This document shows positions 1,670-54,616 of a stretch of DNA of 55,594 bases, in pieces. The DNA lies in NCBI GenBank assembly GCA_020845775.1, contig JADLFC010000017.1, forward strand, positions 1 through 55,594, given 5' to 3'. The DNA comes from Deltaproteobacteria bacterium. Lineage in GTDB: Bacteria; Bdellovibrionota_C; UBA2361; SZUA-149; JADLFC01. The first letter of the stretch is position 1. Each line of letters starts with the position of its first letter. Under the pieces are notes generated by a model. That model was not told where the DNA came from. It saw only the letters and a program-made list of their open reading frames with translations, and did no database searches. The position numbers were made by a program, and so were the translations under genes.

Positions 1670-1674
1670 GAACT

Positions 1675-2823: not shown

Positions 2824-2824
2824 A

Positions 2825-5800: not shown

Positions 5801-6088
5801 TTTCTCCGCAAACACGATATAGAGGTAGAATCCATCAATAAAGTTCGCGAGGGTTCGCCACATATCGTAGATGCTCTTCTTGCGGGGGAGGTAGACTTGG
5901 TCATCAATACGCCGGAAGGAAGTGGGCCACTGCTCGATTCTCGCACGATACGCACTACCGCGTCTGATCTTAGATTGCCGCTCTTTACGACAGTGGCGGC
6001 GGCTCGTGCGGCAGTGGAGGCAATCGAGCAGATGAGTCTCGGAGATAGACTAGATGTGCTCTCTCTGCAGAGATATCTGGCGCAATGA
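2825..6088 (+). CDS. carB: Carbamoyl-phosphate synthase large subunit
   Basis: 1087 aa. Two ATP-grasp halves are recognisable ([22 protein letters not shown] and [22 protein letters not shown]), followed by a C-terminal MGS-like domain. Confidence 0.97.
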
Positions 6089-6119
6089 GTTGAGTAGTGG
6101 ATTAGATGGAGTAAGGCTA

Positions 6120-6602
6120 ATGAGTGAACGAACGCCCATGACCCTTAAGGGGCATAAAGTGTTAAGCGAGGAATTGCAGAGACTAAAATATGTCGAGAGA
6201 CCTAAGGCGTCTAAAGCCATTGAGGTAGCTCGGGAGCACGGCGACTTATCCGAAAATGCCGAGTACGATGCGGCAAAGCAGGCGCAAGGGCTTTTGGAGG
6301 CAAAAATTCGCGATTTGGAGTCCAAGCTAGGTACGGCGCAAGTAGTCGATGTTTCTACGCTTTCAGGAGATAGGGTGGTTTTCGGCGCAACTGTAAAGAT
6401 TTGTTGCTTGGACGATGACGAGCGGCGTGAGATTTACATCGTAGGCGAGGACGAAGCGAATGCTGCGTTAGGGTTTTTATCTTACAAATCACCTCTCGCG
6501 CGGGCTCTTATTGGAAAGCAAGAGGGCGATGTCGTGCAAGTTAAATTGCCCTCTGGGGAGAAAGATTACGAAATTTTAGCGGTTAGCTTTGCAGAAAAAT
6601 AG
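6120..6602 (+). CDS. greA: Transcription elongation factor GreA
   Basis: Contains GDLSENAEYDAAKQAQ, the GreA coiled-coil signature, followed by a C-terminal FKBP-like domain. I chose the internal ATG at 6120 (MSERTPMTLKG...) because the longer ORF from 6054 would overlap the carB end. Confidence 0.88.
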   Translation: MSERTPMTLKGHKVLSEELQRLKYVERPKASKAIEVAREHGDLSENAEYDAAKQAQGLLEAKIRDLESKLGTAQVVDVSTLSGDRVVFGATVKICCLDDDERREIYIVGEDEANAALGFLSYKSPLARALIGKQEGDVVQVKLPSGEKDYEILAVSFAEK

Positions 6603-6616
6603 TTGGGGCTAGTGTT

Positions 6617-36276: not shown

Positions 36277-36495
36277 CGATATGTTATTAAAATACTGAGA
36301 CGCCTTGGGGTGATTTAGGGCATATTAGTTTTTTTGAAGCAAATAACAGTAGACTTCTGATATGTTTCTAAGCAAATAGGTAATAACTGTTATTTATTGT
36401 CTACAATTAACTTACTGTTTACTTTCAATAAAGTCGGAAGAATTCTCGTGGTTTATAGAATGATGCCGTGGTCTATCAGATTAGTTAGAGGTGTT

Positions 36496-36621
36496 TATAC
36501 CATTTACAAAAAGGATTTTTGTAAATGGTATAAACAGCAAGTGCGTAAGCACTTGCCAATAAACAACAAATACCGTTTCCAAAAAGTAAAATATTCAACT
36601 TACTTTTTGGAAACGGTATAT
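36496..36621 (-). repeat. Dispersed structured repeat, copy C (reverse orientation)
   Basis: Reads tataccatttacaaaaaggatttttgtaaatggtataaacagcaagtgcgtaagcacttgccaataaacaacaaataccgtttccaaaaagtaaaatattcaacttactttttggaaacggtatat. The stems are perfect: 13 bp, 8 bp and 17 bp. Confidence 0.9.
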
Positions 36622-36642
36622 TTAGGGGCGTTTTTTATAGTT

Positions 36643-37233
36643 GTGGCATTTTTTGGCAGTCTTCCAGGGCTTGCACTTGCGGATATGGCATGGATTGACG
36701 AGGCTACCGATTGCGACGATTTTCGGCTTCGCGTGCGGGTTTATACCGAGATTGCGTCTGGACTTAAGGATCTTTCGCGAACGCGACTACAAGATGTTAA
36801 TCGGATTTTTAATTTGGCCTGTAGCGAGCAATTTCGCTCCTGCGATTTTAGGTTTTGCTCTGCAAGCGCCGCATCCGAGGATAAGAGAGAACAAGCGAAT
36901 AGCAGCGTGATTACTTCTCCTAGCTTCGCAACGAGCGCGACGAGTGCTCTACCGAAGGTAGAGCCAATTGAAGCTTCAAAGAAGCTCGATACCGGAATGT
37001 CAGATAGCCCAGAGGTCATTAAGGATAAGTTATCAGACAGGAAGAATTTTTTTGTAGAACTTGACGGGCCAATTAGCCATTCCGCCAACATTGAATGGCG
37101 ACCATTTACTATCGATCATGGAGCCATAGACCGCCGCTTATTAACTGACCGCATTATGGCGCTTCAAGTTAGGACGAGGTTCTTGCCTTTTTGGTACATT
37201 AGAAACTCCCTGTTTCGCCTAAGTTTTTTTTAG
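36643..37233 (+). CDS. Hypothetical secreted protein
   Basis: The ORF is open from 36397, but its first 75 codons are read through repeat copy C. A plausible start is the GTG at 36643 (VAFFGSLPGLALA...) or the ATG at 36685. There is no recognisable domain. The C-terminus is aromatic (FLPFWYIRNSLFRLSFF). Confidence 0.35.
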   Translation: MAFFGSLPGLALADMAWIDEATDCDDFRLRVRVYTEIASGLKDLSRTRLQDVNRIFNLACSEQFRSCDFRFCSASAASEDKREQANSSVITSPSFATSATSALPKVEPIEASKKLDTGMSDSPEVIKDKLSDRKNFFVELDGPISHSANIEWRPFTIDHGAIDRRLLTDRIMALQVRTRFLPFWYIRNSLFRLSFF

Positions 37234-39556: not shown

Positions 39557-41314
39557 TTAAGCCTTGCCCTTTGATTTCCCCATTTGATAGCTCTCAATCG
39601 TTATTGCACCCTTATCAATGGTAGTAGAGCCGAGCATTACTCCCATTTTTCTGATTTGCTCGATTGCATCAGGGGTAAGGTACTCTCTAGCCTTTTGCTG
39701 ATCGTCTGGCGGTGCGAACATCAACAACATCTGACCCATATTTTCTAAAGTAGTTCCAAAGCGATCGAAGCTCATGTACCAGTTAAACAATGTGTCCCGT
39801 TCGGAAAGAATCGATTTTTCCATGCCAGACGCCATTGACGCAAATACCTCTCCCTTTCCATTTATTCCTTTTAAAAGCGCCCTGAGTTGATTATCAGTTG
39901 AAGAGGCGATGACGAAATTCTTGTGACGTGTAAGGAACATCCCAAAGCCTAATGGACTCATCATACTTTTTACCTTCACGCCATCAATTTCATTTTCCTG
40001 CCACTGCAAACCCTGGGCGCCGCCTTGTGTTCCCATATATGACGTCACTATTTGCGAAATCTGCTGCTCGGATTGTTCCGCCGCATTCGATTCGAGCACG
40101 ATGAGTAGATCTGGAACTGGCAACATCGAACCGCCACTGCTAGGTGAGTTGACTACCAAACCAACGCGCTGAACGGCATCGAGCACCTTGAGCTGGTCCT
40201 GCACCGGCGCTGGGGCGTTAGCAGCTAAGAGTGCCTTAGCTCTTAGAAGCGTTTGGCCGTCCAAGCTTATAAACAGCAGTGGATCTGCTGGAAGCACTTC
40301 CAACATGCTTTTTGCGTTTGAGCTTCCAAAGATCTCAAAAACTTTCTTTTGGTTCTCGTCTCGGGGATTAAATAGAAGCTTCACAATCGCGCTTGGAATA
40401 TCTGCCATAGCGGAGGACAATGAAATCGCTTCTATTGGTGACTTAGAAACAGAGGCAATTAAATCGGACTTATTTTCGGCCTTAGCGATGTGCTCAACGA
40501 TTTTCGTAAGGTCGATGTACCCAAAGCCGTAACGGCTTTCGCTACTAGGAAAGTCCTGCGTAGCGCGTTTAAAATTCTCCGAATTTACAAACTGCGGAAC
40601 TCCTTGCTTCGCAGTCAGTACTTGTTGAATCACTGTCTCGCTAAATGAGAACACGCCCGTGCCGTTGTTCCACGCGACGAAAATCATTGGCGGCACTTTA
40701 GCCGCCGCTTTACATGCATCGACATCGTCGCATAAGTCATAACTCGAAAAACTAAAACCCTTAGCCCCGGAGATCGACTCATCCTTGACCTCAATACCAG
40801 CCTTTTTGATCTCATCTCTTATAACCGCCAGTCTATTCGGCAATTCGTCTTTTTTGCTGCTTCGCAACAACAATCCAATACTCGTCAATGGTTCGCTTGC
40901 CTGCTGTGGCAGCGTAGCGAAAAGCGCTACCTCGCCAACGAAGTCTTCAATTACTTGAGGTTGCTCGCTCAGATTACATGATCCCTCTAAAATCTGAGCC
41001 ACTTTTTTCGGAAAGCCCTCGCTAGTCAAGATGTCCTTAGCTGAAAACTTGTTTTGCCGAGGGGACCATGGAGAAGCCAGTAATCGCTTGTACGCCGCAT
41101 GCGACAAATCGGCAGATACAAAACAATATGCATCAGAAGGAATAGACTTTACGAGCGAATCGCTGTTTGTGAGCTCAGCCGCAACGTCGGTCGCCTGTGC
41201 TTTTTTTGCAACGACCGAAGTCTCCTTCTTCTTGGAACATGAAGCGGTAAATAAAAATACAGATGTTAGTAAGATAAGCGCAACTCTCGATAGTGAATTG
41301 CAAAACAGTTTCAT
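39557..41314 (-). CDS. Large putative lipoprotein of unknown function
   Basis: Start chosen at MKLFCNSLSRVALILLTSVFLFTASC, a signal peptide with a lipobox-like TASC sequence. The rest of the protein has no recognisable domain. The track ORF extends to 41377. Confidence 0.55.
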   Translation of the reverse strand: MKLFCNSLSRVALILLTSVFLFTASCSKKKETSVVAKKAQATDVAAELTNSDSLVKSIPSDAYCFVSADLSHAAYKRLLASPWSPRQNKFSAKDILTSEGFPKKVAQILEGSCNLSEQPQVIEDFVGEVALFATLPQQASEPLTSIGLLLRSSKKDELPNRLAVIRDEIKKAGIEVKDESISGAKGFSFSSYDLCDDVDACKAAAKVPPMIFVAWNNGTGVFSFSETVIQQVLTAKQGVPQFVNSENFKRATQDFPSSESRYGFGYIDLTKIVEHIAKAENKSDLIASVSKSPIEAISLSSAMADIPSAIVKLLFNPRDENQKKVFEIFGSSNAKSMLEVLPADPLLFISLDGQTLLRAKALLAANAPAPVQDQLKVLDAVQRVGLVVNSPSSGGSMLPVPDLLIVLESNAAEQSEQQISQIVTSYMGTQGGAQGLQWQENEIDGVKVKSMMSPLGFGMFLTRHKNFVIASSTDNQLRALLKGINGKGEVFASMASGMEKSILSERDTLFNWYMSFDRFGTTLENMGQMLLMFAPPDDQQKAREYLTPDAIEQIRKMGVMLGSTTIDKGAITIESYQMGKSKGKA

Positions 41315-41533
41315 AGACTCTTTAGACTCCAAAATAGTAAGGAATAATGCCTTAGGATGATTTCCAATACCTGGCACGCCTGCGCTGCCCTGATAAGTTC
41401 GATTAGCTCTGCTTATACTGTTTTCGTTGGCTTTTGCCCAGAGGATAATATCAACACGCCCCGACTAGTAAATAGGCAAGGGGTGTTTTTGCAGTTTTTT
41501 TTGTGGCAGCGAAGACGCTAGTAGCGACTATAT

Positions 41534-42706
41534 CTAACTGTCGCGGTCCATCTGTAGCGAAAGGCCGGCGGCCATTCCTTCGCCCTCGGTGGAATCGCCG
41601 CCCTTACTTCCGCTAAAGGCCGATGCCGGTTCGTTCAGCGAACCGTCTTCGGCTAGCTTTATTTTTAGGCGCAGGTTGTTGGTGCTGTCGGCGTTTCTAA
41701 GCGCCTCCTCCAAGGAAATGCGACCTTCCTGGTAAAGACTGAGCAAGTGCTGGTCAAACGTCTGCATTCCCACAGTAGTGCTAATTTCCATTGCCTCTTT
41801 TAGTTCTGCAATCTTGCCTCGGTAGATTAAATCCTTAACACGAGGACTGCCTAACAGTATCTCGACACAGGCAGCCCTGTTGCCCTCGACCGTGCGCACT
41901 AAGCGCTGAGAAATAATCCCGCGAAGATTTAGGCTTAACTGAAGATAGATCTGCTGATGCCGCTCCGGCGGAAAAAAGTTCATTATGCGTTCCATCGCCT
42001 GGTTTGCGTTATTCGAATGAAGCGTTGCAAGACACAAATGTCCAGTCTCAGAAAACGCAATGGCCGCTTCCATCGTATCCGAATCCCTAATCTCACCAAT
42101 GAGGATTACGTCAGGTGCCTGCCTGAGCGCATTCTTTAAGGCACTAAAATAATTGTCCGTGTCCATGCCAATCTCGCGCTGATTTACAATCGACTTCTTA
42201 TGCGCGTGCACAAACTCAATGGGATCCTCTATTGTAATAATATGACCAGCCTGGTTTGAGTTTCTGTGGTCAATCATTCCCGCAAGAGTCGTAGACTTTC
42301 CGCAGCCAGTAGAGCCAACGACCAACACCAAACCGCGCTTACTCATTGCAACTTCTTTGATAACGGCTGGCAAACCAAGATCGTCTAAGTTTGGAATCTT
42401 AGACTTAATCTGTCGAATTACCATGCCAATACAACCACGCTGGCGAAAAATGTTTACGCGATAGCGCCCTAAACTGGAATAGTAGAGAGCTAAATTCTGC
42501 TCGTTTGTGGCCTCAAAATCCTTCTGTTGCTTTTCGGTCATTACACTCATGGCGAGCATCTCCGTCTCCTCGCGCTCAAGAGCGCGCGAACCAGCCGGTC
42601 GCACAACGCCGTTAACGCGATAACACGGCGGGCTGTCAACCGTTACATAAAGGTCTGAAGCATCGTGTTCATTCATTACTGTTAAAAGCTTTCTAATATC
42701 TAACAT
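41534..42706 (-). CDS. pilU: Type IV pilus retraction ATPase PilU (PilT paralog)
   Basis: The Walker A VGSTGCGKSTT and the PilT-family His-box/Asp-box are present; 390 aa. It lies directly downstream of pilT. Confidence 0.85.
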   Translation of the reverse strand: MLDIRKLLTVMNEHDASDLYVTVDSPPCYRVNGVVRPAGSRALEREETEMLAMSVMTEKQQKDFEATNEQNLALYYSSLGRYRVNIFRQRGCIGMVIRQIKSKIPNLDDLGLPAVIKEVAMSKRGLVLVVGSTGCGKSTTLAGMIDHRNSNQAGHIITIEDPIEFVHAHKKSIVNQREIGMDTDNYFSALKNALRQAPDVILIGEIRDSDTMEAAIAFSETGHLCLATLHSNNANQAMERIMNFFPPERHQQIYLQLSLNLRGIISQRLVRTVEGNRAACVEILLGSPRVKDLIYRGKIAELKEAMEISTTVGMQTFDQHLLSLYQEGRISLEEALRNADSTNNLRLKIKLAEDGSLNEPASAFSGSKGGDSTEGEGMAAGLSLQMDRDS

Positions 42707-42785
42707 ATTGTTTGCCTTCCCGTAGTTCGCAACAGCGCTTTACCACAAGCCATTCCAGGCTCATTCGTTCGGCGACAAGCGGTTC

Positions 42786-43832
42786 TTATTGCTCAGTACC
42801 AAAGAGATTCGGATTCCCAGATTTCTCGATGGCCGTCTCCTTCGTAATCAGATGAGCATCGGCTAACTCCACTAATGCCATTTCCATCGTCCGCATGCCC
42901 ACATTCTGCCCAGTCTGCAGCATACTCGGCAGTTGGTGAATCTTGTTTTCCCGTATGAGGTTTCTAACACCCGTCGTCCCTACCAGTATCTCCAGTGCCG
43001 CAATTCGCCCGCCACCGACCTTCTTGCAAAGCGTTTGAGTTATTATTGCTTGTACCGACTCGCTTAGCATTGCTCGCACCTGACCCTGTTGGTCAGCGCT
43101 AAACACATCGATAATGCGATCTACTGTCTTAGGTGCACTTGAAGTATGTAGTGTCCCGAACACCAAATGACCTGTCTCTGCGGCGGTAAGCGCCAATTGA
43201 ATAGTCTCCAAATCTCGCATTTCGCCAACGAGAATGATATCTGGATCCTCTCGCAAAGCGGCTCGCAACGCCGCCGCAAACGAGCCCGTGTGTGGCCCAA
43301 CCTCACGCTGGTTAACCAAGCAGCGCTTCGAGGGATGCACAAACTCAATCGGATCCTCGACGGTAAGAATGTGGCCTTCCAGCTCATTGTTTATTAGATC
43401 GACCATTGCTGCCAAGGTGGTGGATTTTCCAGAGCCGGTTGGGCCAGTAACTAGTACTAAACCCTTTTCCTTTCGCGTTAGCTGCGCCAAAATTGACGGC
43501 AAGCCCAACTGCTCGAGGCTCATTATTGCAGTAGGAATAGTCCTAAACACGGCGCCCATCCCACGCCGCTGCCTAAAAACATTGACGCGAAACCGCGCTC
43601 CCTCACCAAGCTCAATTGAAAAATCAATGTCATTGTACTCCTCGAACACTTTTCGCTGAGAGTCACCCATTATGTCGTAAAGCATCGCATGCGTCTGCTC
43701 CGGACTAAGCACTGGCAACTTTACTTTTTTCATGTCGCCATGTACGCGAATAATAGGCGGCTCGCCGGCACTAATGTGTAGATCCGAACCACCCTGCTGA
43801 TACGTAAATGTTAGTAACTGAGCTATATCCAT
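42786..43832 (-). CDS. pilT: Type IV pilus twitching-motility ATPase PilT
   Basis: 348 aa with the Walker A VTGPTGSGKSTT. The PilT signature AIRNLIREGKxHQxxS is approximated by VRNLIRENKIHQLPS. Confidence 0.9.
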   Translation of the reverse strand: MDIAQLLTFTYQQGGSDLHISAGEPPIIRVHGDMKKVKLPVLSPEQTHAMLYDIMGDSQRKVFEEYNDIDFSIELGEGARFRVNVFRQRRGMGAVFRTIPTAIMSLEQLGLPSILAQLTRKEKGLVLVTGPTGSGKSTTLAAMVDLINNELEGHILTVEDPIEFVHPSKRCLVNQREVGPHTGSFAAALRAALREDPDIILVGEMRDLETIQLALTAAETGHLVFGTLHTSSAPKTVDRIIDVFSADQQGQVRAMLSESVQAIITQTLCKKVGGGRIAALEILVGTTGVRNLIRENKIHQLPSMLQTGQNVGMRTMEMALVELADAHLITKETAIEKSGNPNLFGTEQ

Positions 43833-44514: not shown

Positions 44515-47500
44515 ATGAATTCATTGGCAAGCGACACAGAAGATCGAAGAGAGCCTTACCATGCTGTTATTCACGGTAAGAGCAACTTCTCAACAAGGCC
44601 AACGAGAATTTCGGGTTTTTGGGGCAGCACTGTTGCCGCTTACGAGATTTCCAAGCTCGCCCGTAAGCAAAAGCGAACCTTTTCGATCGTCGTGGTCGTT
44701 CCCGACTCACGTGCGGCGGAGGAGATAGAGCGAGATCTGCACTTTTTTTTAGATGAGGCGCAGGCTAAGGATCAAACCAGCACTCCTGCGATTACTATCT
44801 CCAAATTCCTAAACTGGGAGGTTCTGCCGTTTGACGAATTATCTCCAGCCCGAGACATAAGCGCTGAGCGCTTGTTTTCCTTAAAGACCCTCGCCATGAA
44901 TCAATGCTCAATAGTTGTCGCTACTGCGCCAGCTCTGATGCAGAGAATTCTCCTCCCACGAGATTTAATGACGAGTATAAGGAAAATATCTCTCAACATG
45001 GAACTATCGAGAGATAAATTCATTGCCAGCCTCGATAGCCTTTCTTACGTTCGAACTACTTTAGTGGAGGAAGTCGGACAAATGGCTGTGCGCGGAGCCG
45101 TAGTGGATTTCTTTCCGCCAGGCATAAATCTGCCGATAAGAGTTGAGCTGTTCGCAGATATAATTGGATCAATTCGCACTTTTAATCCTGCCACTCAGCG
45201 AAGCGTCACTTCGTTAGCGGAGTTTGAAATCATGCCGGTAGGTGAATGCGTGCATCTTGCCGATTCCTCTCAACGCGTCCAATTTGCAATAGATAAGATT
45301 AAGGAGCGCGCAGACGACCTTGCAATTCCAACTAACCAGATCGAGGGCTTGATAGATGCGCTTAAAGGCAATGCCGATTATCCAGGCCTCGAACACCTGT
45401 TCTGCCTAATTTCAGAAAGCTCAGGAACGTTTCTTGACTACGTTTCGGAAAGTTCCTTGCTCGTAGCATACGACGAAATTGCCATCGCACAGGCTTTGGA
45501 TTCCTTTGAGGCATTAGTAGAAGAGCGAAGCCTCTTGGCTGAGAAGGAAGGGAGGCTTTTTTGCCAAACATCCTCTGCGTTCCAAACGGCAGAGCATACG
45601 CTAAGACAGCTACGCAAGAGGGGAAATTTCTTCTTTGACACTGTCGATATGCTTTCCTTCGACGATTCGCTTAGAGACGCCGCCAATGAGTCGCACGCAG
45701 AGTCTCCTAGCCTGGAGAAAGTGCGTGTTTACTCGAATTCAGAGATAACTAAGAAACTCTGGTCTTCCACCGACCAGGTTCAACCTTTTAAGGAACTCTC
45801 GAGGGAGATAAAGGCACGCATAGACGAGGGAGTAGCCGTCGCTTTAGTAACTAGCCAGGCATCGCGAGTTCAGCGCATTGTCGAGCTACTAACTAATTAC
45901 GAAATATCTTGTGAAAGGTTTAAAGGCTCATTTGCGAACTGGAGAAGTAGAGTAGAGAGCAGTAGCGGACGAGATCGCAAGGTAGTTAGTATTCTGGAAG
46001 GTGTGTGTGGTTCGGGATTGCGCGCGCTCGATGATGCTTTGATGTTTATTTTGGACACGGAAATTTTTAGAGACATGGCCGTGCGCCAGACGCGCTTTGC
46101 AGCACAAAACATTAAGCGCTTTCTTGGCACTAAGTCGCAATTAAGCGAGAACGATTTCGTGGTTCACGTCGATCATGGCATCGCCATCTATCGGGGCCTA
46201 AAGGCCATGACAGTGGAAGGCGAGATAAACGATTATCTCCACCTAGAGTACGCCGAAGGGGCCAAGCTCTATGTTCCAATGGACAACATAGCTAAGGTAC
46301 AAAAGTATATCAGTGCCGGAGGAGGCGCGGAACCGCAGCTAACTAAACTCGGTTCTACTGCCTGGGAAAAGGCTAAGACAAAAGTTCGGCAAAATGTTCA
46401 AGTCTTGGCGGGCGAACTCATTAAGATTTATGCCGAAAGACAGGTAGCCAAAGGACTATCGTTTGGGGAGCCGGATGAAGAGGACGAGCGCTTTGCCGAT
46501 TCCTTTGCATTTACTGAGACGCCCGATCAGATGTCGGCCATTGACGATGTATTGAGAGACATGGCGTCTGATAAGCCCATGGATCGCCTAGTATGTGGCG
46601 ATGTCGGCTACGGCAAGACTGAGGTTGCCGTGCGCGCAGCATTTAAGGCCGTCATGTCGGGTAAACAGGTCGCCATTTTGGTTCCGACGACGGTTTTGGC
46701 GGATCAACATTTCGCTACCTTTAGTGAGCGCTTTGCAGGATACCCAATTCGCCTAAAATGTTTGAGCCGTTTTTGTTCGCCTATTGCAAATCGCCAAACC
46801 GTTTTGGAGCTTGCTAGTGGCAGCCTAGATGTAGTAATCGGCACACACCGCCTTTTGCAGCGAGATGTGCATTTTAAAGATCTGGGATTGTTGATTATCG
46901 ATGAAGAGCACCGCTTTGGAGTGGCACATAAGGAGAGGTTTAAGCGATTTAAGCGCGAAATAGATGTCTTGACATTGAGCGCTACGCCTATCCCAAGAAC
47001 TCTCAACATGTCGCTATCTGGTATACGGGATTTAAGCGTAATCGAAACACCACCAAGCGATCGGCAAGTAATTAGAACGTACATTGCGCCGTATAGCGAT
47101 GGCGTAGTGCGCGAGGCGATAATGCGCGAGATAGGACGCAGCGGGCAGGTGTTTTACATTCACAATCGAGTCAGCAATATCGCTGCTATTGCAGCCGAGC
47201 TTGGCAAACTGGTTCCAGAGGCCAAGATAGAATTTGCCCATGGACAGATGCACGAAAAGGAGCTAGAGGTTATTATGCATCGATTCGTAAGTCGCGAGAT
47301 CGATGTGCTGGTTTCAACTACGATTGTCGAGTCTGGCTTAGATATTCCAAACGCCAACACCATCATCATTCGAGGAGCAGAAAAATTCGGCTTGGCTGAG
47401 CTTTATCAGCTTAGAGGTCGGGTAGGAAGGAGCTCGCGCCGCGCCTATGCCTACCTACTAGTGCAAGATTTAAAGAACATTGCCGGGGATGCAAAGCGGC

Positions 47501-48174
47501 GCCTACAAGTGCTTCAATCGTTAGACGACCTAGGTGTGGGCTTTCGATTAGCGCTTCAGGATATGGAAATTCGCGGCGCAGGAAATCTTTTGGGAAAGGA
47601 TCAGTCAGGACAAGTAAGCCAAGTTGGCTTTGAGTTATATTCTCGGATTTTGAAGGAAGTTGTGGATAACATGCAGGAGAGTGCTGTAGAAACCACCAAT
47701 CTCACAAAAGATGTTCCCATAGTGGAACCAGAGGTTCATATTGGTTTTCCCGTTCATATACCGGAGTGGTATATTCCGGATGTTGCCGAGAGGTTAGTAT
47801 TGTACCAGCGATTAGTAGATTTGCGAGACGAGGCGCGAGCTGGCGAGTTAAGAGAAGAGATCGAGGACAGATTTGGCAGGCTTCCAGAAGAAGTCGCTTT
47901 GCTGCTCGAGCTAATGACTTTTCGCAGTTTGCTAAAACAAGCTCGAATTGTGTCGGCTAGTTTTAGAAATTCTCAGCTAGTGTTAGCATTTCACCCGCGC
48001 GTTTCTCTGGATGGCAAAACAGTTATCGAAGCTATTCAGACCGCAAGGGGTCGCCTAAAGATTAGCCCAGATATGGTATTAAAAGCTGATATTGGAGTAC
48101 AGAAACTGGAGTCACCCGCCGAGTTGCTAGGTCACACAAAGGCAATATTAAAACAGCTTGGCGTGCAAGTGTAA
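44515..48174 (+). CDS. mfd: Transcription-repair coupling factor Mfd
   Basis: 1219 aa. UvrB-homology N-terminal modules, a RecG-like SF2 helicase core (CGDVGYGKTEVA, DEEHRFG) and a TRG motif are present. Confidence 0.95.
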   Translation: MNSLASDTEDRREPYHAVIHGKSNFSTRPTRISGFWGSTVAAYEISKLARKQKRTFSIVVVVPDSRAAEEIERDLHFFLDEAQAKDQTSTPAITISKFLNWEVLPFDELSPARDISAERLFSLKTLAMNQCSIVVATAPALMQRILLPRDLMTSIRKISLNMELSRDKFIASLDSLSYVRTTLVEEVGQMAVRGAVVDFFPPGINLPIRVELFADIIGSIRTFNPATQRSVTSLAEFEIMPVGECVHLADSSQRVQFAIDKIKERADDLAIPTNQIEGLIDALKGNADYPGLEHLFCLISESSGTFLDYVSESSLLVAYDEIAIAQALDSFEALVEERSLLAEKEGRLFCQTSSAFQTAEHTLRQLRKRGNFFFDTVDMLSFDDSLRDAANESHAESPSLEKVRVYSNSEITKKLWSSTDQVQPFKELSREIKARIDEGVAVALVTSQASRVQRIVELLTNYEISCERFKGSFANWRSRVESSSGRDRKVVSILEGVCGSGLRALDDALMFILDTEIFRDMAVRQTRFAAQNIKRFLGTKSQLSENDFVVHVDHGIAIYRGLKAMTVEGEINDYLHLEYAEGAKLYVPMDNIAKVQKYISAGGGAEPQLTKLGSTAWEKAKTKVRQNVQVLAGELIKIYAERQVAKGLSFGEPDEEDERFADSFAFTETPDQMSAIDDVLRDMASDKPMDRLVCGDVGYGKTEVAVRAAFKAVMSGKQVAILVPTTVLADQHFATFSERFAGYPIRLKCLSRFCSPIANRQTVLELASGSLDVVIGTHRLLQRDVHFKDLGLLIIDEEHRFGVAHKERFKRFKREIDVLTLSATPIPRTLNMSLSGIRDLSVIETPPSDRQVIRTYIAPYSDGVVREAIMREIGRSGQVFYIHNRVSNIAAIAAELGKLVPEAKIEFAHGQMHEKELEVIMHRFVSREIDVLVSTTIVESGLDIPNANTIIIRGAEKFGLAELYQLRGRVGRSSRRAYAYLLVQDLKNIAGDAKRRLQVLQSLDDLGVGFRLALQDMEIRGAGNLLGKDQSGQVSQVGFELYSRILKEVVDNMQESAVETTNLTKDVPIVEPEVHIGFPVHIPEWYIPDVAERLVLYQRLVDLRDEARAGELREEIEDRFGRLPEEVALLLELMTFRSLLKQARIVSASFRNSQLVLAFHPRVSLDGKTVIEAIQTARGRLKISPDMVLKADIGVQKLESPAELLGHTKAILKQLGVQV

Positions 48175-48199
48175 ATTCTTCGCAAAAAAAGGTCGCTAT

Positions 48200-49162
48200 A
48201 TGAGTCATATGAATATACTTAAGTCGGCGTTAATGTTTGTCACCATAGGGGTCTTTTTTTTGCTATTTTCGCCGGCCTCTTTTGCGCAATCCGCTGCTAG
48301 GACAGACGGCAACATCATTAATGAGGTAGTGGCCGACATCGATGGAGAACCGTTGACAGTTAAAGATTTAGAGCAATACGCAGCCCTTCAGGGACAAGAT
48401 TTACCGCCAGACATTTTTGGCGGGGACACAAAAATTATGCAGCTCGTCAAGGATATGGTGCTAAGCAAACTAATCGAACGCGAAGCTAAGGAAAGTGGGA
48501 TAGAGGTGAGTTCCGAGGAGATAGCCTCATATATTGAGGAGATTCGGCGACAGAACGGAGTCGACATAGATGGTTTCCGGAAGTTATTGGAGAGTCGTGG
48601 CCTTTCGGAACAAGACTACAAAAGGGTGGTTGCAGGCGATATTTTGCGTGCCAAGGTTATTAGCGCCAAAGTGCGTGCAAAAGTTCAAATAGTCGACGAG
48701 GACGTCAAGCGATATATAGAGAAAAACCCACAAAGGATTCCGCCGGCAGGAATGGTTAGAGTAGAGCAGATATTTTTTCCAATCGATATTTCTGCGAACG
48801 AAAAGGCTTTGGCCGAGACACTATCGGAGTTGCGAAAAAGAATCATCGGCGGCCTGGAATTCTCACAGGCTGGTGGCGCGAATTATAGTGACCTGGGATA
48901 TATGAATTTAGCGGATCTATCAACTGAGTTGAGGCAGGCGGCGGTGGGGCTTGAAGACGGTGGCGTAAGTAATGTAATAATCGCAGGTCAGGGGGTTTAT
49001 TTGTTGCGCGTTTCGGGATCTACGCGCGGAGAGAACGGGGTAGCTCCGGGCATGGAAAAACAGATTCGAGACGAGCTCTACCAAGCTGCGCTTAAGGAAG
49101 GGCTAGAAAAATTCCTTACTGAGCAACTACCAACAAAATATGAGGTCGAGATAAAGCTATAG
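48200..49162 (+). CDS. SurA-like periplasmic chaperone/peptidyl-prolyl isomerase
   Basis: A signal peptide (MSHMNILKSALMFVTIGVFFLLFSPASFAQS) is followed by a SurA N-terminal chaperone domain and a parvulin-like segment. The track ORF begins at 48158 and overlaps the mfd stop. Confidence 0.7.
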   Translation: MSHMNILKSALMFVTIGVFFLLFSPASFAQSAARTDGNIINEVVADIDGEPLTVKDLEQYAALQGQDLPPDIFGGDTKIMQLVKDMVLSKLIEREAKESGIEVSSEEIASYIEEIRRQNGVDIDGFRKLLESRGLSEQDYKRVVAGDILRAKVISAKVRAKVQIVDEDVKRYIEKNPQRIPPAGMVRVEQIFFPIDISANEKALAETLSELRKRIIGGLEFSQAGGANYSDLGYMNLADLSTELRQAAVGLEDGGVSNVIIAGQGVYLLRVSGSTRGENGVAPGMEKQIRDELYQAALKEGLEKFLTEQLPTKYEVEIKL

Positions 49163-49247: not shown

Positions 49248-50633
49248 TTGGTCGCAAAAGAAAAAATTTATAGAGAGTATGACATTAGAGGCGTGGTAGG
49301 CGAAGATTTTGATGCCAATTTTGCCTACGAGCTTGGCCGCGCATTTGCGGAGCTAATGCGCCAGCGCCTTGGCGATGGAGTTTACGAAGTTGCTGTTGGC
49401 CGAGATTGTCGCTTAAGCGGAGAAGAATTAGGGACTCGCCTAATAGAAGGATTGTGCGATGCGGGAATGGATGTAGTGTTTACCGGTATGGGACCGACCC
49501 CGCAGTTGTACTATTCAGTTTTTGCTCTTGGTACAAAGGCAGGCATACAAATCACTGGCAGTCATAATCCGGCAGACCAGAATGGTTTTAAAATGATGAT
49601 TGGTGAGTTAACGCTTAGTGGGGCCGACATACAATTGCTAAAAAAGCTCGTAAACACTAGGCGTGCCAATTCGTATAACGGCCCCGGTGGCGGCTGCCGC
49701 GAGTTAGACATGACGTCAACTTACGTAAGTGAACTAATCGAGCGCTCAAAGCCGCATATGGGGCAAAGGAAGCTAAGAGTTGTTGTTGATGCTGGAAATG
49801 GGGTAGGTGGACTTTGTGGCCCGGATGTTTTGAGGGGCTTGGGTTGCGAAGTAATTGAGCTGTACACCGAGGCTGACGGTAGCTTCCCCAATCATCATCC
49901 AGACCCGACGGTGTTAGAAAATATCGCTGAAATGCGCGAGCGCGTCGTCTCCGAGAGGGCGGATTTGGGGATAGCCTGGGATGGCGATGCTGATCGAATT
50001 GGGGTGGTTGATGAAAACGGGGCTGTGATCTACGGCGACATGCTGTTAATTCTCTACGGGAGACAACTTCTCAAGGAGGTAAAAAAGCCCATTATCATTG
50101 CTGATGTTAAGTGTTCGGAAGTGCTGTTTTCTACTCTTCGCAATGAAGGAGCCGAAGCAGTTATGTGGAAAACTGGCCATAGCTTAATAAAGGGCAAGTT
50201 GCGAGAATTAAATGCCCATTTAGCAGGCGAAATGAGTGGTCATGTTTTCTTTAAGCACCGCTATTATGGCTTCGACGATGCGATTCATGCTTCGGCAAGA
50301 TTAGTAGAGATTTTAAGCAATAGCGACAAGTCACTAGGGACGTTATTAGGCGACATTCCGCATATGGTAAGCACGCCCGAAATTCGCGTAGACTGTATTG
50401 AGGAACAGAAGTTTAAGATTGTCGACATTATGAAGTCGGCCTTTTCCGAATACACTGTAAACACGCTCGATGGGGTTCGAGTAACGTTTCCCAGCGGCTG
50501 GGGTTTGGTCAGGGCGTCTAACACCCAACCGGTGCTAGTAATGAGATTTGAGGCGGACAGTGCAGAGCATTTGGACGAATACAGAAAGATAGTGGAGTCT
50601 AGGCTCGAACAAGCAGTTAAAGAACTTGGCTAA
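49248..50633 (+). CDS. Phosphomannomutase/phosphoglucomutase (alpha-D-phosphohexomutase)
   Basis: Active-site TGSHNPADQNGFK and the metal-binding loop DGDADR are present. The start is a TTG with a GGGAGA Shine-Dalgarno 8 nt upstream. Confidence 0.88.
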   Translation: MVAKEKIYREYDIRGVVGEDFDANFAYELGRAFAELMRQRLGDGVYEVAVGRDCRLSGEELGTRLIEGLCDAGMDVVFTGMGPTPQLYYSVFALGTKAGIQITGSHNPADQNGFKMMIGELTLSGADIQLLKKLVNTRRANSYNGPGGGCRELDMTSTYVSELIERSKPHMGQRKLRVVVDAGNGVGGLCGPDVLRGLGCEVIELYTEADGSFPNHHPDPTVLENIAEMRERVVSERADLGIAWDGDADRIGVVDENGAVIYGDMLLILYGRQLLKEVKKPIIIADVKCSEVLFSTLRNEGAEAVMWKTGHSLIKGKLRELNAHLAGEMSGHVFFKHRYYGFDDAIHASARLVEILSNSDKSLGTLLGDIPHMVSTPEIRVDCIEEQKFKIVDIMKSAFSEYTVNTLDGVRVTFPSGWGLVRASNTQPVLVMRFEADSAEHLDEYRKIVESRLEQAVKELG

Positions 50634-50652: not shown

Positions 50653-53292
50653 ATGCGTGATGAGATATGCATCATCGAGGCCAATGAAAACAATTTGGCG
50701 CGCATTAACTGTTTTTTTTCGCGAAATGCCCTTAACGTGGTTACTGGGCCGTCTGGCTCTGGCAAGACGTCATTAGTATTTGACGTATTATGCCGAGAAG
50801 CGCAGTGGCGTTTTTTTGAGAGTTCTCTAAGCCGCTCAAAAAATATTGCCGTTAGTTTAAAGCGTCCGGACGTCAAATCCATCAGCGGTCTTTCATTTGT
50901 ATCTGGGATCAGTTTCCGCGATCTTCCGTCGCCGTTTGCTACGTTGTCTACGCTTACTCGCATCTATGAGTACTTGCGCTTAATTTTCTATTACTGCGGC
51001 GCTCCACATTGCCTAAATTGCGGTGCGAAACTTTCCTGCCATTCGCGCCGCGATATGTGTCGTTTCGCGCTGACAATGGCCAAGGATTCGGCGATTGCCG
51101 TAATTGTACGCTTTAAAAAAGTTTCGCGGGAGCAGTTTAGGGAAAAATGCAAGGATTTTGGATCCAAGGGATTCTCGCGCATTCGATTGGGAAAGAAGTT
51201 TTTTCACATCGACGATGCGTTACGCCTAAAGATTAATGAGCCACAGCTAACATTTTCGCTAGTAATAGATGTAATTCCACAGTGTGCTGACAATCGCAGT
51301 GAGGCTCGAATTATCGAGGCACTCGAGACGGCGCTTAGTGTCGGAGGCGGCGAGGCATTTATCGCCGAGATGCGCGACAGTGGGGAAAAAAGACATCTCT
51401 CGGAGTTGCTGAGATGTAAGGATTGCGAACTCGTACAGAGGCGAATAGAGTTGGCAGCGTTTTCGTACCACAACCCTCATTGCGCCTGCGATACCTGCCG
51501 TGGAAGCGGATTTCGCAGCAGGCATCGCGGTCGACATGGCGCGGCGGAGGAAAAACACTGTCCAGATTGTGGAGGTGCCCGAGTGGGTGTGGAGGCTCGG
51601 CACTATCGCCTATTAGACAGATCTTTCGCACAAGTGGTCGGCGATTCAGTGGACAGCCTCTTAATATTTGCTAAACAGGCAGAGTCTCAGCTTGGCGCTC
51701 AGGAGCACTTTAAACGCACTGGCGATTCTTCTTCTCCTAACGGCGAACGAATGCCTTTTCGTGAAAGCTTCGATGTGTTACGTGCCGCAGCTAAAGAACT
51801 TATTGCACGAGCTAGCAATCTAAGCGAATTGGGACTTGGATATCTTGAATTAAACAGGCCAATAAGCAGTTTGTCTAAAGGAGAGTTACAGCGAGCACAG
51901 CTTGCTCGGGTGTTAAACAATGGCATGAGTGGAATCGTCTATGCGCTGGATGAGCCAACGTTGGGTTTACATCCAAAAGATACAACAAATGTAGTGCGCG
52001 TATTGGAGCGAATCATTAGTCTCGGCAATACAGCTATTGTTATCGAGCACGACTTTTCTTTTGTTGCTCATGCAAGCCACGTACTTTCATTGGGGCCTGG
52101 CGGAGGGACGAATGGTGGAAGAGTGGTTTTTTCTGGCAATGCAAGGGATTATCTGAGCTTTTGCGCCGATAATGAGAGGTCGACTCCTAAGCATGAGGCG
52201 CAGGCGAGAATAGAAGATACGTCGCGCGTAGTGGATAATCTTACATCTGTGGAGAATCCGCCGTGCTTAAGTATCAAAGGTGCTAAGAAAAATAATTTAA
52301 AAAACCTCGATTGCGTTGTTCCTCTAAACCGTCTCGCAGTAATTTGCGGTGTTTCGGGTTCGGGGAAAACTAGCTTAATCGCCGAAACTATTGCGCCAGC
52401 TATAAAAGAGGCTTTGAGGGTAAAGAAGGGTGCTCAAGGTTTAAAACTGATAGCGATTGACTGGAGCAAGTGGCAACTTGAAAGTATTTCGGGCTTTGAG
52501 GGCATAAGCAGGGTGGTTGACTCATGGCGAGCTGCTAGGAAAGACAATCGGCGATCCGTTGTCGCTACTGCAATCGGTGTGATGCTTCCTCTAAGAGGCA
52601 TGTTTGCTCGGACAGTCGGCGCCAAGATGCGAGGTTTTAGCAATAGGCATTTTTCTTTTAACTTGATTGAAGGCGCCTGCATGCGCTGCAAGGGAATTGG
52701 GGTCGAAAAAAGCTTAGCTGAGTCTGGCAACATACTAGAGGCAGTCTGCGAGGATTGCCGTGGAAGGCGCTACCGCCCGGAACTAGAGGAGATTCGTTAT
52801 CGCAATCTGTCTATCCAGGAGGTTTTAGACCTAAACATTGAGCAGGCATTTGCCGTTTTTCAGAAGATTGAGCAGATTGGGCATCCGCTTTCACAGGCCA
52901 TTGAGGTGGGCTTGGGCTATTTAAAGCTGTCCGAGCCTACCGCCTCTCTATCTTTTGGCGAGTACAATCGATTAATGCTAGCAAGAGACATACTGTCTCG
53001 ATCCCTGAGAGGACGAAACAGCCCAGCACTCTATATCTTCGATGAGCCGTCGGAGGGCCTACATAGAGACGAAATTTCGCTTCTCATTAAACTTTTTAGG
53101 CGCTTAGTAAATGCTGGTAATACTGTACTACTAATTGAGCACAATACGCACATAATTAGTGAGGCGGATTTTATTCTGGAACTGGGGCCAGGCGCCGGAC
53201 GGTCTGGAGGAGAAATAATAGCCTCGGGCTCCAAGAAAGAGGTAATGGAGAGCCATCATTCCCTAATAAGGCAGTATTTAAAGAATAACTAG
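50653..53292 (+). CDS. Divergent UvrA-like ABC ATPase (UvrA paralog)
   Basis: N-terminus MRDEICIIEANENNLARINCFFSRNALNVVTGPSGSGKTSL aligns with the UvrA N-terminus and first Walker A. A second Walker A is CGVSGSGKTSL. Walker B and H motifs read ALDEPTLGLH/IEHD and IFDEPSEGLH/IEHN. Both signature motifs are degenerate: LSKGELQRAQLA and LSFGEYNRLMLA in place of LSGGEAQR. Zn-finger-like Cys clusters are retained. Confidence 0.75.
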   Translation: MRDEICIIEANENNLARINCFFSRNALNVVTGPSGSGKTSLVFDVLCREAQWRFFESSLSRSKNIAVSLKRPDVKSISGLSFVSGISFRDLPSPFATLSTLTRIYEYLRLIFYYCGAPHCLNCGAKLSCHSRRDMCRFALTMAKDSAIAVIVRFKKVSREQFREKCKDFGSKGFSRIRLGKKFFHIDDALRLKINEPQLTFSLVIDVIPQCADNRSEARIIEALETALSVGGGEAFIAEMRDSGEKRHLSELLRCKDCELVQRRIELAAFSYHNPHCACDTCRGSGFRSRHRGRHGAAEEKHCPDCGGARVGVEARHYRLLDRSFAQVVGDSVDSLLIFAKQAESQLGAQEHFKRTGDSSSPNGERMPFRESFDVLRAAAKELIARASNLSELGLGYLELNRPISSLSKGELQRAQLARVLNNGMSGIVYALDEPTLGLHPKDTTNVVRVLERIISLGNTAIVIEHDFSFVAHASHVLSLGPGGGTNGGRVVFSGNARDYLSFCADNERSTPKHEAQARIEDTSRVVDNLTSVENPPCLSIKGAKKNNLKNLDCVVPLNRLAVICGVSGSGKTSLIAETIAPAIKEALRVKKGAQGLKLIAIDWSKWQLESISGFEGISRVVDSWRAARKDNRRSVVATAIGVMLPLRGMFARTVGAKMRGFSNRHFSFNLIEGACMRCKGIGVEKSLAESGNILEAVCEDCRGRRYRPELEEIRYRNLSIQEVLDLNIEQAFAVFQKIEQIGHPLSQAIEVGLGYLKLSEPTASLSFGEYNRLMLARDILSRSLRGRNSPALYIFDEPSEGLHRDEISLLIKLFRRLVNAGNTVLLIEHNTHIISEADFILELGPGAGRSGGEIIASGSKKEVMESHHSLIRQYLKNN

Positions 53293-53435: not shown

Positions 53436-53636
53436 GTTTTTTGTTCGAGAGTGATTACGGCGTGCAATTTTTCATAGGCGGTTACTTCTGTGCACATTCT
53501 GTTCGACGAGATGCAGAGACGGCAGGTTTTTTTGCGCTGAACTGCCTAACAGGAGGCGCTTGTTCTCTCGCGCTTGTTCACTTGCTTGAATTGGATACTG
53601 CTGCGTGATATTTTAGGATTTGGGGGGTTTTTTGCT

Positions 53637-54113
53637 ATGCCTTTAATGAGGTGTAATCTAGGAGATAATAGAGGTATCTCACTAGTAGAGCTTTCAATTA
53701 TTCTTCCAATGTTGATGCTGCTTTTAGGCGGCATAGTGGATGTCGGTCTAACGCTTAGGACTTATCAGGTCGTCTCGGAAGCTGCTAGACAGGCGGCTCG
53801 AGTTGGTAGTGGCGTTAGCTGTGCTGACGCTCCCGGCGTGGCTGTGGACACTGCTACTAATTTCCTTACGAATGCTGGTTATAAAGTTCAGGAAGTAAAA
53901 GGAGATGAGACTATTAACCACTGGATTATCGCTGCCGTTCAGGCGCAACACCAAGAGGGTTTGGGAACGGCGGCATTCGATGAGTGCATGTTAAGGGTAT
54001 CGATCGACCAAAACACTCCGTCCTGCGTCATCTGTTTGGGCGAGACTTTTCTTGGGCTTCGCGCTAACGCGGAGAGCACATTTGCCATGGAGCCAGGATG
54101 CAAATGTCCGTAG
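53637..54113 (+). CDS. tadE: TadE-like Flp pilus assembly protein (pseudopilin)
   Basis: MPLMRCNLGDNRGISLVELSIILPMLMLLLGGIVDVGLTL is a TadE N-terminal motif. Start chosen at the internal ATG at 53637; the track ORF begins at 53574. Confidence 0.75.
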   Translation: MPLMRCNLGDNRGISLVELSIILPMLMLLLGGIVDVGLTLRTYQVVSEAARQAARVGSGVSCADAPGVAVDTATNFLTNAGYKVQEVKGDETINHWIIAAVQAQHQEGLGTAAFDECMLRVSIDQNTPSCVICLGETFLGLRANAESTFAMEPGCKCP

Positions 54114-54616
54114 ATGCTCAATCGATCTCATCGTTACTACAAACCTTTAGACAGCAGAAGGGAGCTACGATGCTAGAGTTCAGCCTTTCGTGTCTAGTTT
54201 TAATTGGAATTGTGGGCGCCGTTTTCGACGTAGGCATTGGTTTTCGCAACTACGTATTGATGACTCATACCACAAATGAGGCTGTTCGCGAATTTGCAGC
54301 GCGAGCGGGTGGGCTGCTCTTACCTCCGGCATGTGAAGATTTAGTAAGCAATAAGGCATCGCCAAAATGTAACGAGTTGGGCGCATGTTTGGCGCTTAGT
54401 GCGAAAAATGCACTCGAAAAGGAGATGGGTATTAGCGGTGACTATGAATTTTTAGCAACAGTTGGAAGTAAGGGAAGGGAGTTCGTATCACTTGAGGGGA
54501 GATGGCCGCTAGACTGTTTCTTTTGCTTATTGCTGCCAGATAACAAAAATTTCACTGTAAGAACTAGAAGTAGCTCCTTAATCGAAAATATGAATTTTCG
54601 CTGTGCAAATGAATAG
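54098..54616 (+). CDS. tadF: TadE/TadF-like Flp pilus assembly protein (pseudopilin)
   Basis: RQQKGATMLEFSLSCLVLIGIVGAVFDVGIGF is a TadE-family N-terminus. It overlaps tadE by 16 nt. Confidence 0.7.
   Translation: MQMSVDAQSISSLLQTFRQQKGATMLEFSLSCLVLIGIVGAVFDVGIGFRNYVLMTHTTNEAVREFAARAGGLLLPPACEDLVSNKASPKCNELGACLALSAKNALEKEMGISGDYEFLATVGSKGREFVSLEGRWPLDCFFCLLLPDNKNFTVRTRSSSLIENMNFRCANE

Follow-up and report, generated by a model that had tools for sequence, protein, structure and literature searches.

We describe a highly divergent gene for the nucleotide excision repair (NER) protein UvrA, encoded on a complete 55.6-kb contig of a metagenome-assembled genome (MAG) that is filed as a deltaproteobacterium; this contig, taken at its full length, is referred to below as the window. 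The gene in question is the following:

50653..53292 (+): uvrA-like gene, 879 aa, lacking the insertion domain and hyper-diverged; listed by NCBI as 'hypothetical protein IT291_01135 [Deltaproteobacteria bacterium]'

The order of genes around it shows that this is the resident uvrA in the ancestral slot of a deep-branching Oligoflexia/Bdellovibrionota-like lineage, and it is best filed as a hyper-diverged variant of the class-I-derived, Bdellovibrionota-type uvrA. With regard to function, we propose, at about even confidence, that this positional ortholog combines extreme divergence with a weakened autonomous sensing of DNA damage and would be delivered to lesions mainly by the transcription-repair coupling factor Mfd.

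In the window, the gene is the third one downstream of mfd and starts 19 nt after the gene for a phosphoglucomutase/phosphomannomutase (pgm), the complete row being mfd, a gene for a SurA-like peptidyl-prolyl isomerase, pgm and the uvrA-like gene; the first-pass annotation, made from the letters of the window, had given the position relative to mfd and pgm correctly. Three more loci encode UvrAs of the same divergent kind (hereafter, the clade, with the gene denoted uvrA'), and each retains a part of this order: mfd, a 576-aa open reading frame (ORF), a SurA-like gene, pgm and uvrA' in L005; mfd, a SurA-like gene and uvrA' in L086; and pgm followed by uvrA' at a contig edge in L002. The 576-aa ORF between mfd and the SurA-like gene (L005:1211-2941) has no Pfam match and was seen in this relative only. 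The same slot is occupied by uvrA at five loci outside the clade:

L090, 1904-12679: mfd, one or two SurA-like genes, pdxA, pgm, uvrA, on the same strand

L091, 2884-12661: mfd, one or two SurA-like genes, pdxA, pgm, uvrA, on the same strand

L092, 1833-12559: mfd, one or two SurA-like genes, pdxA, pgm, uvrA, on the same strand

L082 (an uncultured Oligoflexia MAG), 59-7821: mfd, two weakly SurA-like ORFs, pgm, uvrA; no pdxA

L088 (the P0064 locus), 3-5944: a cut SurA-like ORF, pdxA, pgm, uvrA; the contig ends before any mfd position

A SurA-like gene lies between mfd and uvrA in every related locus with a visible upstream region, and pgm adjoins uvrA in the window as well as in L002, L005, L082, L088, L090, L091 and L092. 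All five UvrAs encoded outside the clade lack the insertion domain and carry canonical motifs. In particular, the UvrA of L082 is 51-62% identical to unrelated UvrAs and 31-34% identical to the members of the clade, with P0064 as its closest relative; the seeming frameshift that splits its gene into two ORFs (L082:7201-7211) comes from a stretch of masked N letters in the record as stored, so that a pseudogene was rejected. A search with P0064 retrieved more than 120 clusters at 70-88% identity, all of which match the UvrB-binding domain (PF17760) and none the insertion domain (PF17755); their source names describe UvrA from Oligoflexia, Bdellovibrionota or Bdellovibrio sp. As a control, we used 80 UvrA loci from a scan of a genome collection with the clade alignment, considering flanks of up to 10 kb per side: in 79 of them mfd is absent from the flanks, the sole exception being L082. 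Among the matches listed in that scan there were only UvrA relatives, at no more than 36% identity, and the window's own contig was not among them. Since five other loci of Oligoflexia and Bdellovibrionota carry both features or the visible part of the cluster, the linkage to mfd and the missing insertion domain are phylum traits of ordinary uvrA and not marks of specialisation. In the open-access literature, we found no paper on UvrA without the insertion domain or on mfd-uvrA linkage in Bdellovibrionota, or on this divergent clade.

These data bear on the interpretation offered by the first-pass annotation, which had taken the gene for a specialised paralog, distinct from the housekeeping uvrA, and had considered its proximity to mfd to be special. 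The context does not support such a paralog: the gene sits in the ancestral slot that holds the ordinary uvrA of the phylum at the five loci, which argues against an extra copy placed near mfd, and the linkage is phylum-wide and is found with canonical UvrAs, too. The same annotation had reasoned that a sole uvrA in the genome, with motif variants shared by orthologs across the lineage, would speak for a divergent UvrA of the housekeeping kind, and half of that picture was found, in that the three other members of the clade vary at the same motif positions.

The assignment of orthology rests on synteny because the sequence signal is saturated, and the attempts to place the clade by sequence speak against it. 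Scores with subgroup hidden Markov model profiles show no specific affinity of the clade to the Bdellovibrionota-type UvrA, and the neighbor-joining (NJ) tree recovers the four members as a monophyletic group that forms the deepest branch, outside all other UvrAs, a position that is probably caused by long-branch attraction. Replacement of uvrA in situ by a xenologous gene is a conceivable alternative to orthology.

The clade comprises four known proteins, all from metagenomes, namely P0001 (the target), P0019 (from the Oligoflexia MAG GCA_029555385.1), P0056 (on ERZ25069810 ctg101119) and P0052 (on JGI 3300015615 Ga0183872_11404735), which are encoded by ORFs of 826-879 aa and share a pattern of variation: signature motif I reads LS[KTAS]GE, signature motif II reads LS[FHL]GE, the Gln of Q-loop I is lost, and the hairpin of the third zinc module (Zn3) has diverged. 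Identity between these UvrAs is about 33-39%. How unusual this is can be seen from the neighboring genes: between the window and L005, Mfd is 59.6% identical, PGM 64.6% and UvrA 34.3%, and between the window and L086 (which has no pgm), Mfd is 50.7% identical and UvrA 33.0%, whereas pairs of the standard loci L090, L091 and L092 show 62-66% for Mfd, 69-73% for PGM and 73-74% for UvrA, and the canonical pair L082-L088 shows 61.6% for PGM and 62.1% for UvrA. After Poisson correction, the pair identities translate into about 2.2-fold more change per site in the clade UvrA. Judging from these alignments, uvrA in the clade has evolved at about double the normal rate and double that of its neighbors; given that two members of the clade differ this much from each other, the acceleration is ongoing inside it. 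A profile of the clade, run against 1.84 billion cluster representatives, found among the best 150 matches no other single-length protein above about 911 bits; nearly all of these 150 were double-length (duplicated) UvrAs, which are numerous (P0121-P0266, 1300-2340 aa). Against a database clustered at 90% identity, the same profile gave no match between 724 and 1287 bits, so that there were no new members and no pair close enough for estimating the ratio of nonsynonymous to synonymous substitution rates (dN/dS).

Two other explanations of the gene meet this evidence directly. The first is that it encodes the ordinary housekeeping UvrA of a fast-evolving lineage, with motif changes that are neutral or compensated and with normal global NER and transcription-coupled repair (TCR). 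The ancestral position of the gene would suit this explanation well, but Mfd and PGM diverge normally and UvrA alone is found at about half of the expected identity, for which reason a fast lineage is disfavored; moreover, divergence that continues within the clade is indicative of persistently relaxed constraint and not of a new optimum. The second is that a canonical uvrA, which arose by duplication or came by horizontal transfer, performs the housekeeping NER from elsewhere in the genome, leaving the copy in the ancestral slot free to diverge toward a regulatory or accessory role. Sustained acceleration in which invariant residues are lost is classically seen once redundancy has arisen, the intact UvrA-binding surface of Mfd would serve a second, canonical UvrA equally well, and the NCBI annotation of the target is merely 'hypothetical protein'. 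Yet the target occupies the slot of the ordinary uvrA of the phylum, no second uvrA is present in the 55.6-kb window or in the flanks of L002, L005 and L086, and no second copy from the same assemblies surfaced in the database searches, which were not designed to find one. We consider such redundancy unlikely on balance, if still a serious contender.

The target itself is an intact gene for a recognizable UvrA. Translation of the ORF on the forward strand meets no internal stops over 879 codons; an alternative TTG start at 50626 overlaps the pgm stop, and homologs align from residue 1-5 of the form that starts with ATG. A phmmer search of PDB sequences finds the UvrAs of Thermotoga maritima (3pih, E=1e-149) and Bacillus stearothermophilus (2r6f, 1e-143). 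Identity to other UvrAs is 31-37%, compared to an average of 54% among those proteins across phyla, and the low overall identity to canonical UvrA that had been remarked on at first pass is thereby borne out. The thresholds of the curated families are missed: TIGR00630, the UvrA equivalog, scores 604.5 bits, under its cutoff of 729.8, and NF001503 scores 594 bits against a cutoff of 1147. The other three members reach 611-639 bits on TIGR00630, which puts the whole clade, at 604-640 bits, under the cutoff. The low scores are not due to the absent insertion domain because UvrAs that lack it and have canonical motifs score 1226-1292 bits; nor does that absence alone bar the target from the equivalog, as the bona fide UvrAs of the phylum are without PF17755 as well.

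The AlphaFold2 (AF2) model of the target has a mean predicted local distance difference test score (pLDDT) of 85.5 and a predicted template modelling (pTM) score of 0.81. With this model as a query, Foldseek returns class I UvrAs as best matches (3uwx, 2r6f and 3pih; E of about 1e-67 to 1e-69, template modelling (TM) scores of 0.7-0.8), ahead of class II UvrA2 and Ecm16, and a class I UvrA fold is confidently predicted.

In UvrA, the proximal ATP site is built from ATP-binding domain I together with signature domain II, and the distal site from ATP-binding domain II together with signature domain I (PMC6486640). The target retains the following elements:

50746..50772 (+): Walker A of ATP-binding domain I, GPSGSGKTS (proximal site), aa 32-40, intact

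52348..52374 (+): Walker A of ATP-binding domain II, GVSGSGKTS (distal site), aa 566-574, intact

51937..51972 (+): Walker B I and D-loop, VYALDEPTLGLH, aa 429-440, Asp-Glu intact

53029..53064 (+): Walker B II and D-loop, LYIFDEPSEGLH, aa 793-804, Asp-Glu intact

51052..51369 (+): UvrB/Mfd-binding domain PF17760, aa 134-239, 36.5 bits over a cutoff of 23.3

The H-loops are found at aa 463-467 and 827-831, and the Walker A lysines (K38 and K572), the Walker B pairs D433-E434 and D797-E798 and the H-loop histidines H466 and H830 are conserved in all four members of the clade. Three Cys4 modules are present in the target, C120/C123/C255/C258, C279/C282/C303/C306 and C676/C679/C699/C702. All twelve zinc cysteines occur in three members, and eight in P0052 (L086:10001-12481), where the four of zinc module 2, kept by the other three proteins, are replaced by K, Q, A and I. 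The two Walker A motifs, the two pairs of Walker B and H-loop and the Cys clusters that had been reported at first pass were thus all found in their places. In the UvrB-binding domain, which is modelled with a pLDDT of about 85-92, R219 corresponds to Escherichia coli R216, retained throughout the clade, and E225 to E222. The equivalent of E. coli R712 is kept, Arg or Lys is found at positions 722 and 724 in all four members, and downstream of the altered residue of Q-loop II, the target keeps R634, S635, A638 and T639.

Against this background of preserved elements, a set of residues that are otherwise nearly invariant has changed, as judged by comparison with 64 aligned reference proteins, which are other UvrAs of single length and come from many phyla:

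51871..51906 (+): signature motif I, LSKGELQRAQLA (LSKGE; part of the distal site), aa 407-418, Gly3 replaced by Lys

52948..52983 (+): signature motif II, LSFGEYNRLMLA (LSFGE; part of the proximal site), aa 766-777, Gly3 replaced by Phe and a conserved Gln by Asn

50908..50949 (+): Q-loop I region, ISFRDLPSPFATLS, F88 in place of Gln, and F95 and A96 in place of the conserved R and S in the NPRST that follows

52513..52569 (+): Q-loop II region, Gln replaced by R626

51913..51933 (+): LNNGMSG, in which N422 stands at the position of E. coli G502, the residue altered in the damage-discrimination mutant G502D

52642..52662 (+): NRHFSFN, in which H666 is aligned to R730, a DNA-binding residue of E. 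coli

52678..52758 (+): zinc module 3 with a diverged hairpin, Cys4 kept; the Arg of GGRCE is replaced by A675, the residue just before this span

51487..51570 (+): zinc module 2 (CDTC...CPDC), with 20 residues between the Cys pairs, where the insertion (DNA-binding) domain of about 110 aa is missing

Position 3 of the signature is Gly in both motifs (LSGGE) in all 64 reference proteins, an invariance that makes chance variation an insufficient explanation for its change. The description of both signatures as degenerate, given at first pass, is right about this glycine and too strong for the rest because the catalytic Ser, which is the residue that engages ATP (PMC12796330), the second Gly and the Glu are retained. 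The Gln of Q-loop I, present in 64 of 64 other proteins, has given way to F, P, A and R in P0001, P0019, P0056 and P0052, respectively; in the same order of proteins, the Gln of Q-loop II (98% of the others) is R, R, S and Q, the equivalent of G502 (Gly in all other aligned UvrAs) is N, S, G and S, the equivalent of R730 (Arg in 22 of 22 others) is H, H, E and H, and the Arg of GGRCE in zinc module 3 (R in the others) is A, A, C and A. The hairpin sequence EMHFLPDVYV of that module is not conserved in the target, and the pLDDT falls below 50 at aa 690-693. As for the insertion domain, its region spans 22 residues as compared to 127 in E. coli UvrA, alignment to UvrAs of solved structure leaves out residues 289-374 of the query, where the templates have about 150-170 residues, and the Pfam scan yields no match to PF17755 in the target. 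Therefore the statement that the protein keeps the UvrA architecture holds for the Walker A, Walker B and H-loop motifs of the ABC (ATP-binding cassette) modules and for the zinc modules and fails for the insertion domain and the glutamines of both Q-loops; likewise, the structure prediction, which had been suggested as a check on domain content, gives a confidently modelled UvrB-binding domain and a short loop of low confidence in place of the insertion domain.

In the alignment as a whole, 218 columns reach a conservation of at least 92% among the other UvrAs, and 108 of these survive in all four members of the clade. About 35 positions of at least 92% conservation in the 64 UvrAs are changed in all four, among them both signature Gly3, the Gln of Q-loop I, the R730 equivalent and the Arg of GGRCE. 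By domain, relative conservation is best in the ATP-binding cores (0.68-0.70), and erosion is strongest (0.50-0.60) in the signature domains, in the UvrB-binding domain and in the hairpin of Zn3, whose value of 0.50 is the lowest of all elements.

UvrAs with canonical motifs and no insertion domain were also encountered in other lineages, specifically, in the P0057/P0083 group (843 aa), P0077/P0086/P0094 (Nitrospirae), P0061 (Planctomycetes), P0046, P0118 and P0115. They are scattered on the NJ tree, and those tested pass the NCBI UvrA cutoff with 1227-1232 bits. The distribution suggests that the insertion domain has been lost repeatedly across lineages.

The balance of kept and changed residues returns us to the housekeeping explanation. 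It is favored by the predicted class I fold, by the retained zinc modules and by the nucleotide-binding and catalytic residues, all of them kept (the Lys of Walker A, the Glu of Walker B, the His of the H-loop and the Ser of the signature), and position 3 of the signature varies in other proteins of the UvrA family and in the ABC superfamily; against it stand the roughly 35 highly conserved positions that changed in all four members and the replacement of the Q-loop II Gln and of the G502 equivalent in three of the four. Altogether, unimpaired housekeeping by this protein appears rather improbable. The opposite extreme would be a decaying relic, with NER being lost and the gene non-functional, or a protein re-purposed for a role outside NER, such as class II-like drug resistance or phage defense. 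The scores under the curated cutoffs, the many lost invariant residues, the complete absence of zinc-module-2 cysteines from P0052 and the matches to the PADLOC families mad3 and mad8 point in this direction. They are countered by intact ORFs of 826-879 aa in four genomes whose products are 61-67% divergent from one another, by the retention of all P-loop, Walker B and H-loop residues and of twelve zinc cysteines in three members (eight in P0052), by the confidently predicted fold, by a domain pattern that is the reverse of that of class II, and by the lack of a biosynthetic or defense context in the window; the PADLOC matches are generic, E. coli UvrA scoring twice as high. We regard decay or such re-purposing as very improbable. 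Of the individual candidates for a non-NER role, the MADS defense system was rejected, as the target scores 167 and 73 bits on mad3 and mad8 compared to 342 and 124 bits for E. coli UvrA and has no MADS-like neighbors, and class II UvrA or drug resistance was rejected on account of the reversed domain pattern. The two PADLOC profiles, PDLC04135 (mad3) and PDLC04140 (mad8), are triggered by any UvrA and are, accordingly, a source of false defense-system calls.

What, then, might a UvrA with these particular changes do? The hairpin of Zn3 makes contacts that are specific for damage, in a manner coupled to the proximal site (PMC7835731); DNA is contacted by the insertion domain (PMC7835731; PMC12796330). 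Manelyte et al. (2010) found that three E. coli UvrA variants, d290-400 (which lacks the insertion domain), K37A (affected in the proximal site) and G502D, shift repair toward the template strand, and concluded that the insertion domain, ATPase activity at the proximal site and the recognition of damage by UvrA are less important to TCR that depends on Mfd than to global NER (PMC3025350). In the clade, the elements of the catalytic sites that are altered most consistently belong to the proximal site: signature II and the region of Q-loop I differ in all four members. The lost or altered elements are mostly those tied to damage discrimination, with the hairpin of Zn3 and the equivalent of G502 alongside Q-loop I and signature II. 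An attenuated or specialised function of the target is plausible because about half of the near-universal positions are lost, evolution is about twofold faster than in the neighbors, and the curated UvrA thresholds are failed. We envisage that the target has preserved the binding of ATP and DNA and the docking to UvrB or Mfd, and that its ATP-coupled, autonomous discrimination between damaged and undamaged DNA has become weaker. Its main task would then be to load UvrB at lesions to which Mfd, acting at stalled RNA polymerase, has brought it, the outcome being transcription-coupled repair rather than genome-wide scanning. In the strictest version, to which we assign little credence, the target would be the sole uvrA of the cell, a natural separation-of-function variant that loads UvrB only via the co-encoded Mfd, making NER essentially transcription-coupled only.

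Several observations count against delivery by Mfd and weakened sensing. A specially conserved UvrB/Mfd-binding domain, which would have supported dependence on Mfd, was sought and not found: the relative conservation of this domain is 0.58, like that of other non-core domains, and there is, hence, no positive signal of selection for the Mfd interface. The linkage to mfd is itself no argument for Mfd dependence because it predates the divergence and occurs with canonical UvrAs. In the PROSITE pattern of the ABC signature, position 3 can be any of several residues, and LSRGE or LSTGE is present in other paralogs of the UvrA family. Any effect of Lys or Phe at signature position 3, or of the loss of the Q-loop Gln, on the ATPase of UvrA would be a prediction at the level of sequence, and the evidence base of the clade consists of four metagenome members only. 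A related side finding concerns long proteins of Myxococcota annotated as 'AAA family ATPase' (about 1500 aa; P0017, P0018, P0020, P0027-P0036 and others), which are related to UvrA and contain three or four signature motifs, with conserved LSRGE and LS[STA]GELQR; a residue other than Gly at position 3 thus recurs in the non-canonical part of the UvrA family.

Comparison with known systems helps to delimit the proposed Mfd-delivered UvrA. The nearest counterpart by position is the Bdellovibrionota/Oligoflexia-type UvrA (the P0064 family), with which the target shares the slot mfd-surA-(pdxA)-pgm-uvrA, the two ABC modules, the UvrB-binding domain, the three zinc modules, the lack of the insertion domain and a length in the range of 850-920 aa. 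The members of that family, however, are 70-88% identical to one another, have canonical Q-loops, LSGGE and the canonical Zn3 hairpin and score 1226-1292 bits on TIGR00630, whereas the target is about 32% identical to them (31-33% to the UvrAs of L082, L088 and L090-92), lacks the canonical residues and scores 604 bits. The best matches in both sequence and structure are class I UvrAs (E. coli; 2r6f, 3pih, 3uwx, 3zqj, 9gx*), which have in common with the target both nucleotide-binding domains, the UvrB-binding domain with the R216 equivalent, three zinc modules and most DNA-binding basic residues; unlike them, the target is devoid of the insertion domain, both Q-loop Gln and both signature Gly3, and its equivalents of G502 and R730 and its Zn3 hairpin are changed. 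With the E. coli mutants d290-400, K37A and G502D, the target shares, in combination, the lack of the insertion domain, altered proximal motifs and a changed G502 equivalent, with the UvrB/Mfd interface kept; the mutants, however, each carry one engineered lesion in an otherwise canonical protein, the target retains the very Walker A Lys that is removed in K37A, and the resemblance of its substitutions is one of sequence. Finally, the class II proteins (Deinococcus radiodurans UvrA2, Ecm16, DrrC) are, similarly, divergent UvrA-family ABC ATPases outside the canonical annotation, with weaker but clear similarity to the target in sequence and structure (2vf7, 7sh1). Class II UvrA is without the UvrB-binding domain and zinc module 1 and keeps the insertion domain, which it needs for DNA binding (PMC10192343), whereas the target possesses the UvrB-binding domain and zinc module 1, has no insertion domain and is not located in a biosynthetic cluster.

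The neighbors that precede the target in the window are as follows:

44515..48174 (+): mfd, encoding the transcription-repair coupling factor and heading the cluster; TIGR00580 993.7 bits, over a cutoff of 800

48158..49162 (+): SurA-like peptidyl-prolyl isomerase (PF13624, PF09312, PF13145), overlapping the end of mfd by 17 nt

49248..50633 (+): PgmG-like phosphoglucomutase/phosphomannomutase (PF02878/79/80, PF00408; NF046027 502 bits)

The Mfd of the window contains the UvrB-homology module PF17757 at aa 158-242, and comparison with E. coli Mfd shows that the Mfd proteins of the window and of L086 retain the UvrA-contact residues R165, R181 and F185 (E. coli numbering). An operon is inferred from the tight spacing of the genes; a scan of the cluster for promoters and terminators gave counts not above the shuffled expectation. 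Neither uvrB nor uvrC is among the genes of the window. Farther out, two genes for T2SSE/PilT-like ATPases lie upstream of the cluster (41534-43832 (-)) and two TadE-like genes downstream (53574-54616 (+)); a gene for Flp pilin and two T2SSE genes are also found near the cluster in L086 (L086:20079-22481), and the wider region is partly syntenic within the clade. The window also encodes an 1161-aa protein (20059-23544 (+)) that combines a reprolysin-type M12B metalloprotease with bacterial Ig-like domains and FG-GAP repeats, as well as ORFs without a Pfam match at E<=1e-5, at 39557-41377 (-), 25644-26690 (-), 36397-37233 (+) and 23613-24233 (+), of 606, 348, 278 and 206 aa, respectively.

UvrA belongs to the most conserved repair proteins of bacteria, and the clade described here can be viewed as a natural experiment on which of its parts are dispensable, the candidates being the Q-loop Gln, the signature Gly and the equivalents of G502 and R730. 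On the practical side of annotation, P0001 and P0019 are at present labelled 'hypothetical protein' by NCBI. The divergence of the clade hints at a weakened or re-purposed repair protein rather than at an extra copy. If the clade protein is the sole UvrA of its hosts, it would be an extreme case of a trend toward transcription-coupled delivery; if a canonical copy coexists with it, we would be dealing with ordinary divergence after redundancy. The wider context may be of more use than the clade itself: the ordinary UvrA of Bdellovibrionota and Oligoflexia lacks the insertion domain and, in the four loci with a visible upstream region, belongs to a cluster headed by mfd. This combination may be functionally meaningful, considering that removal of the insertion domain in E. 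coli impairs global repair more than Mfd-coupled repair, and it raises the question of whether some bacteria rely mainly on the transcription-coupled delivery of UvrA, a question that is addressable inasmuch as Bdellovibrio is cultivable and genetically tractable.

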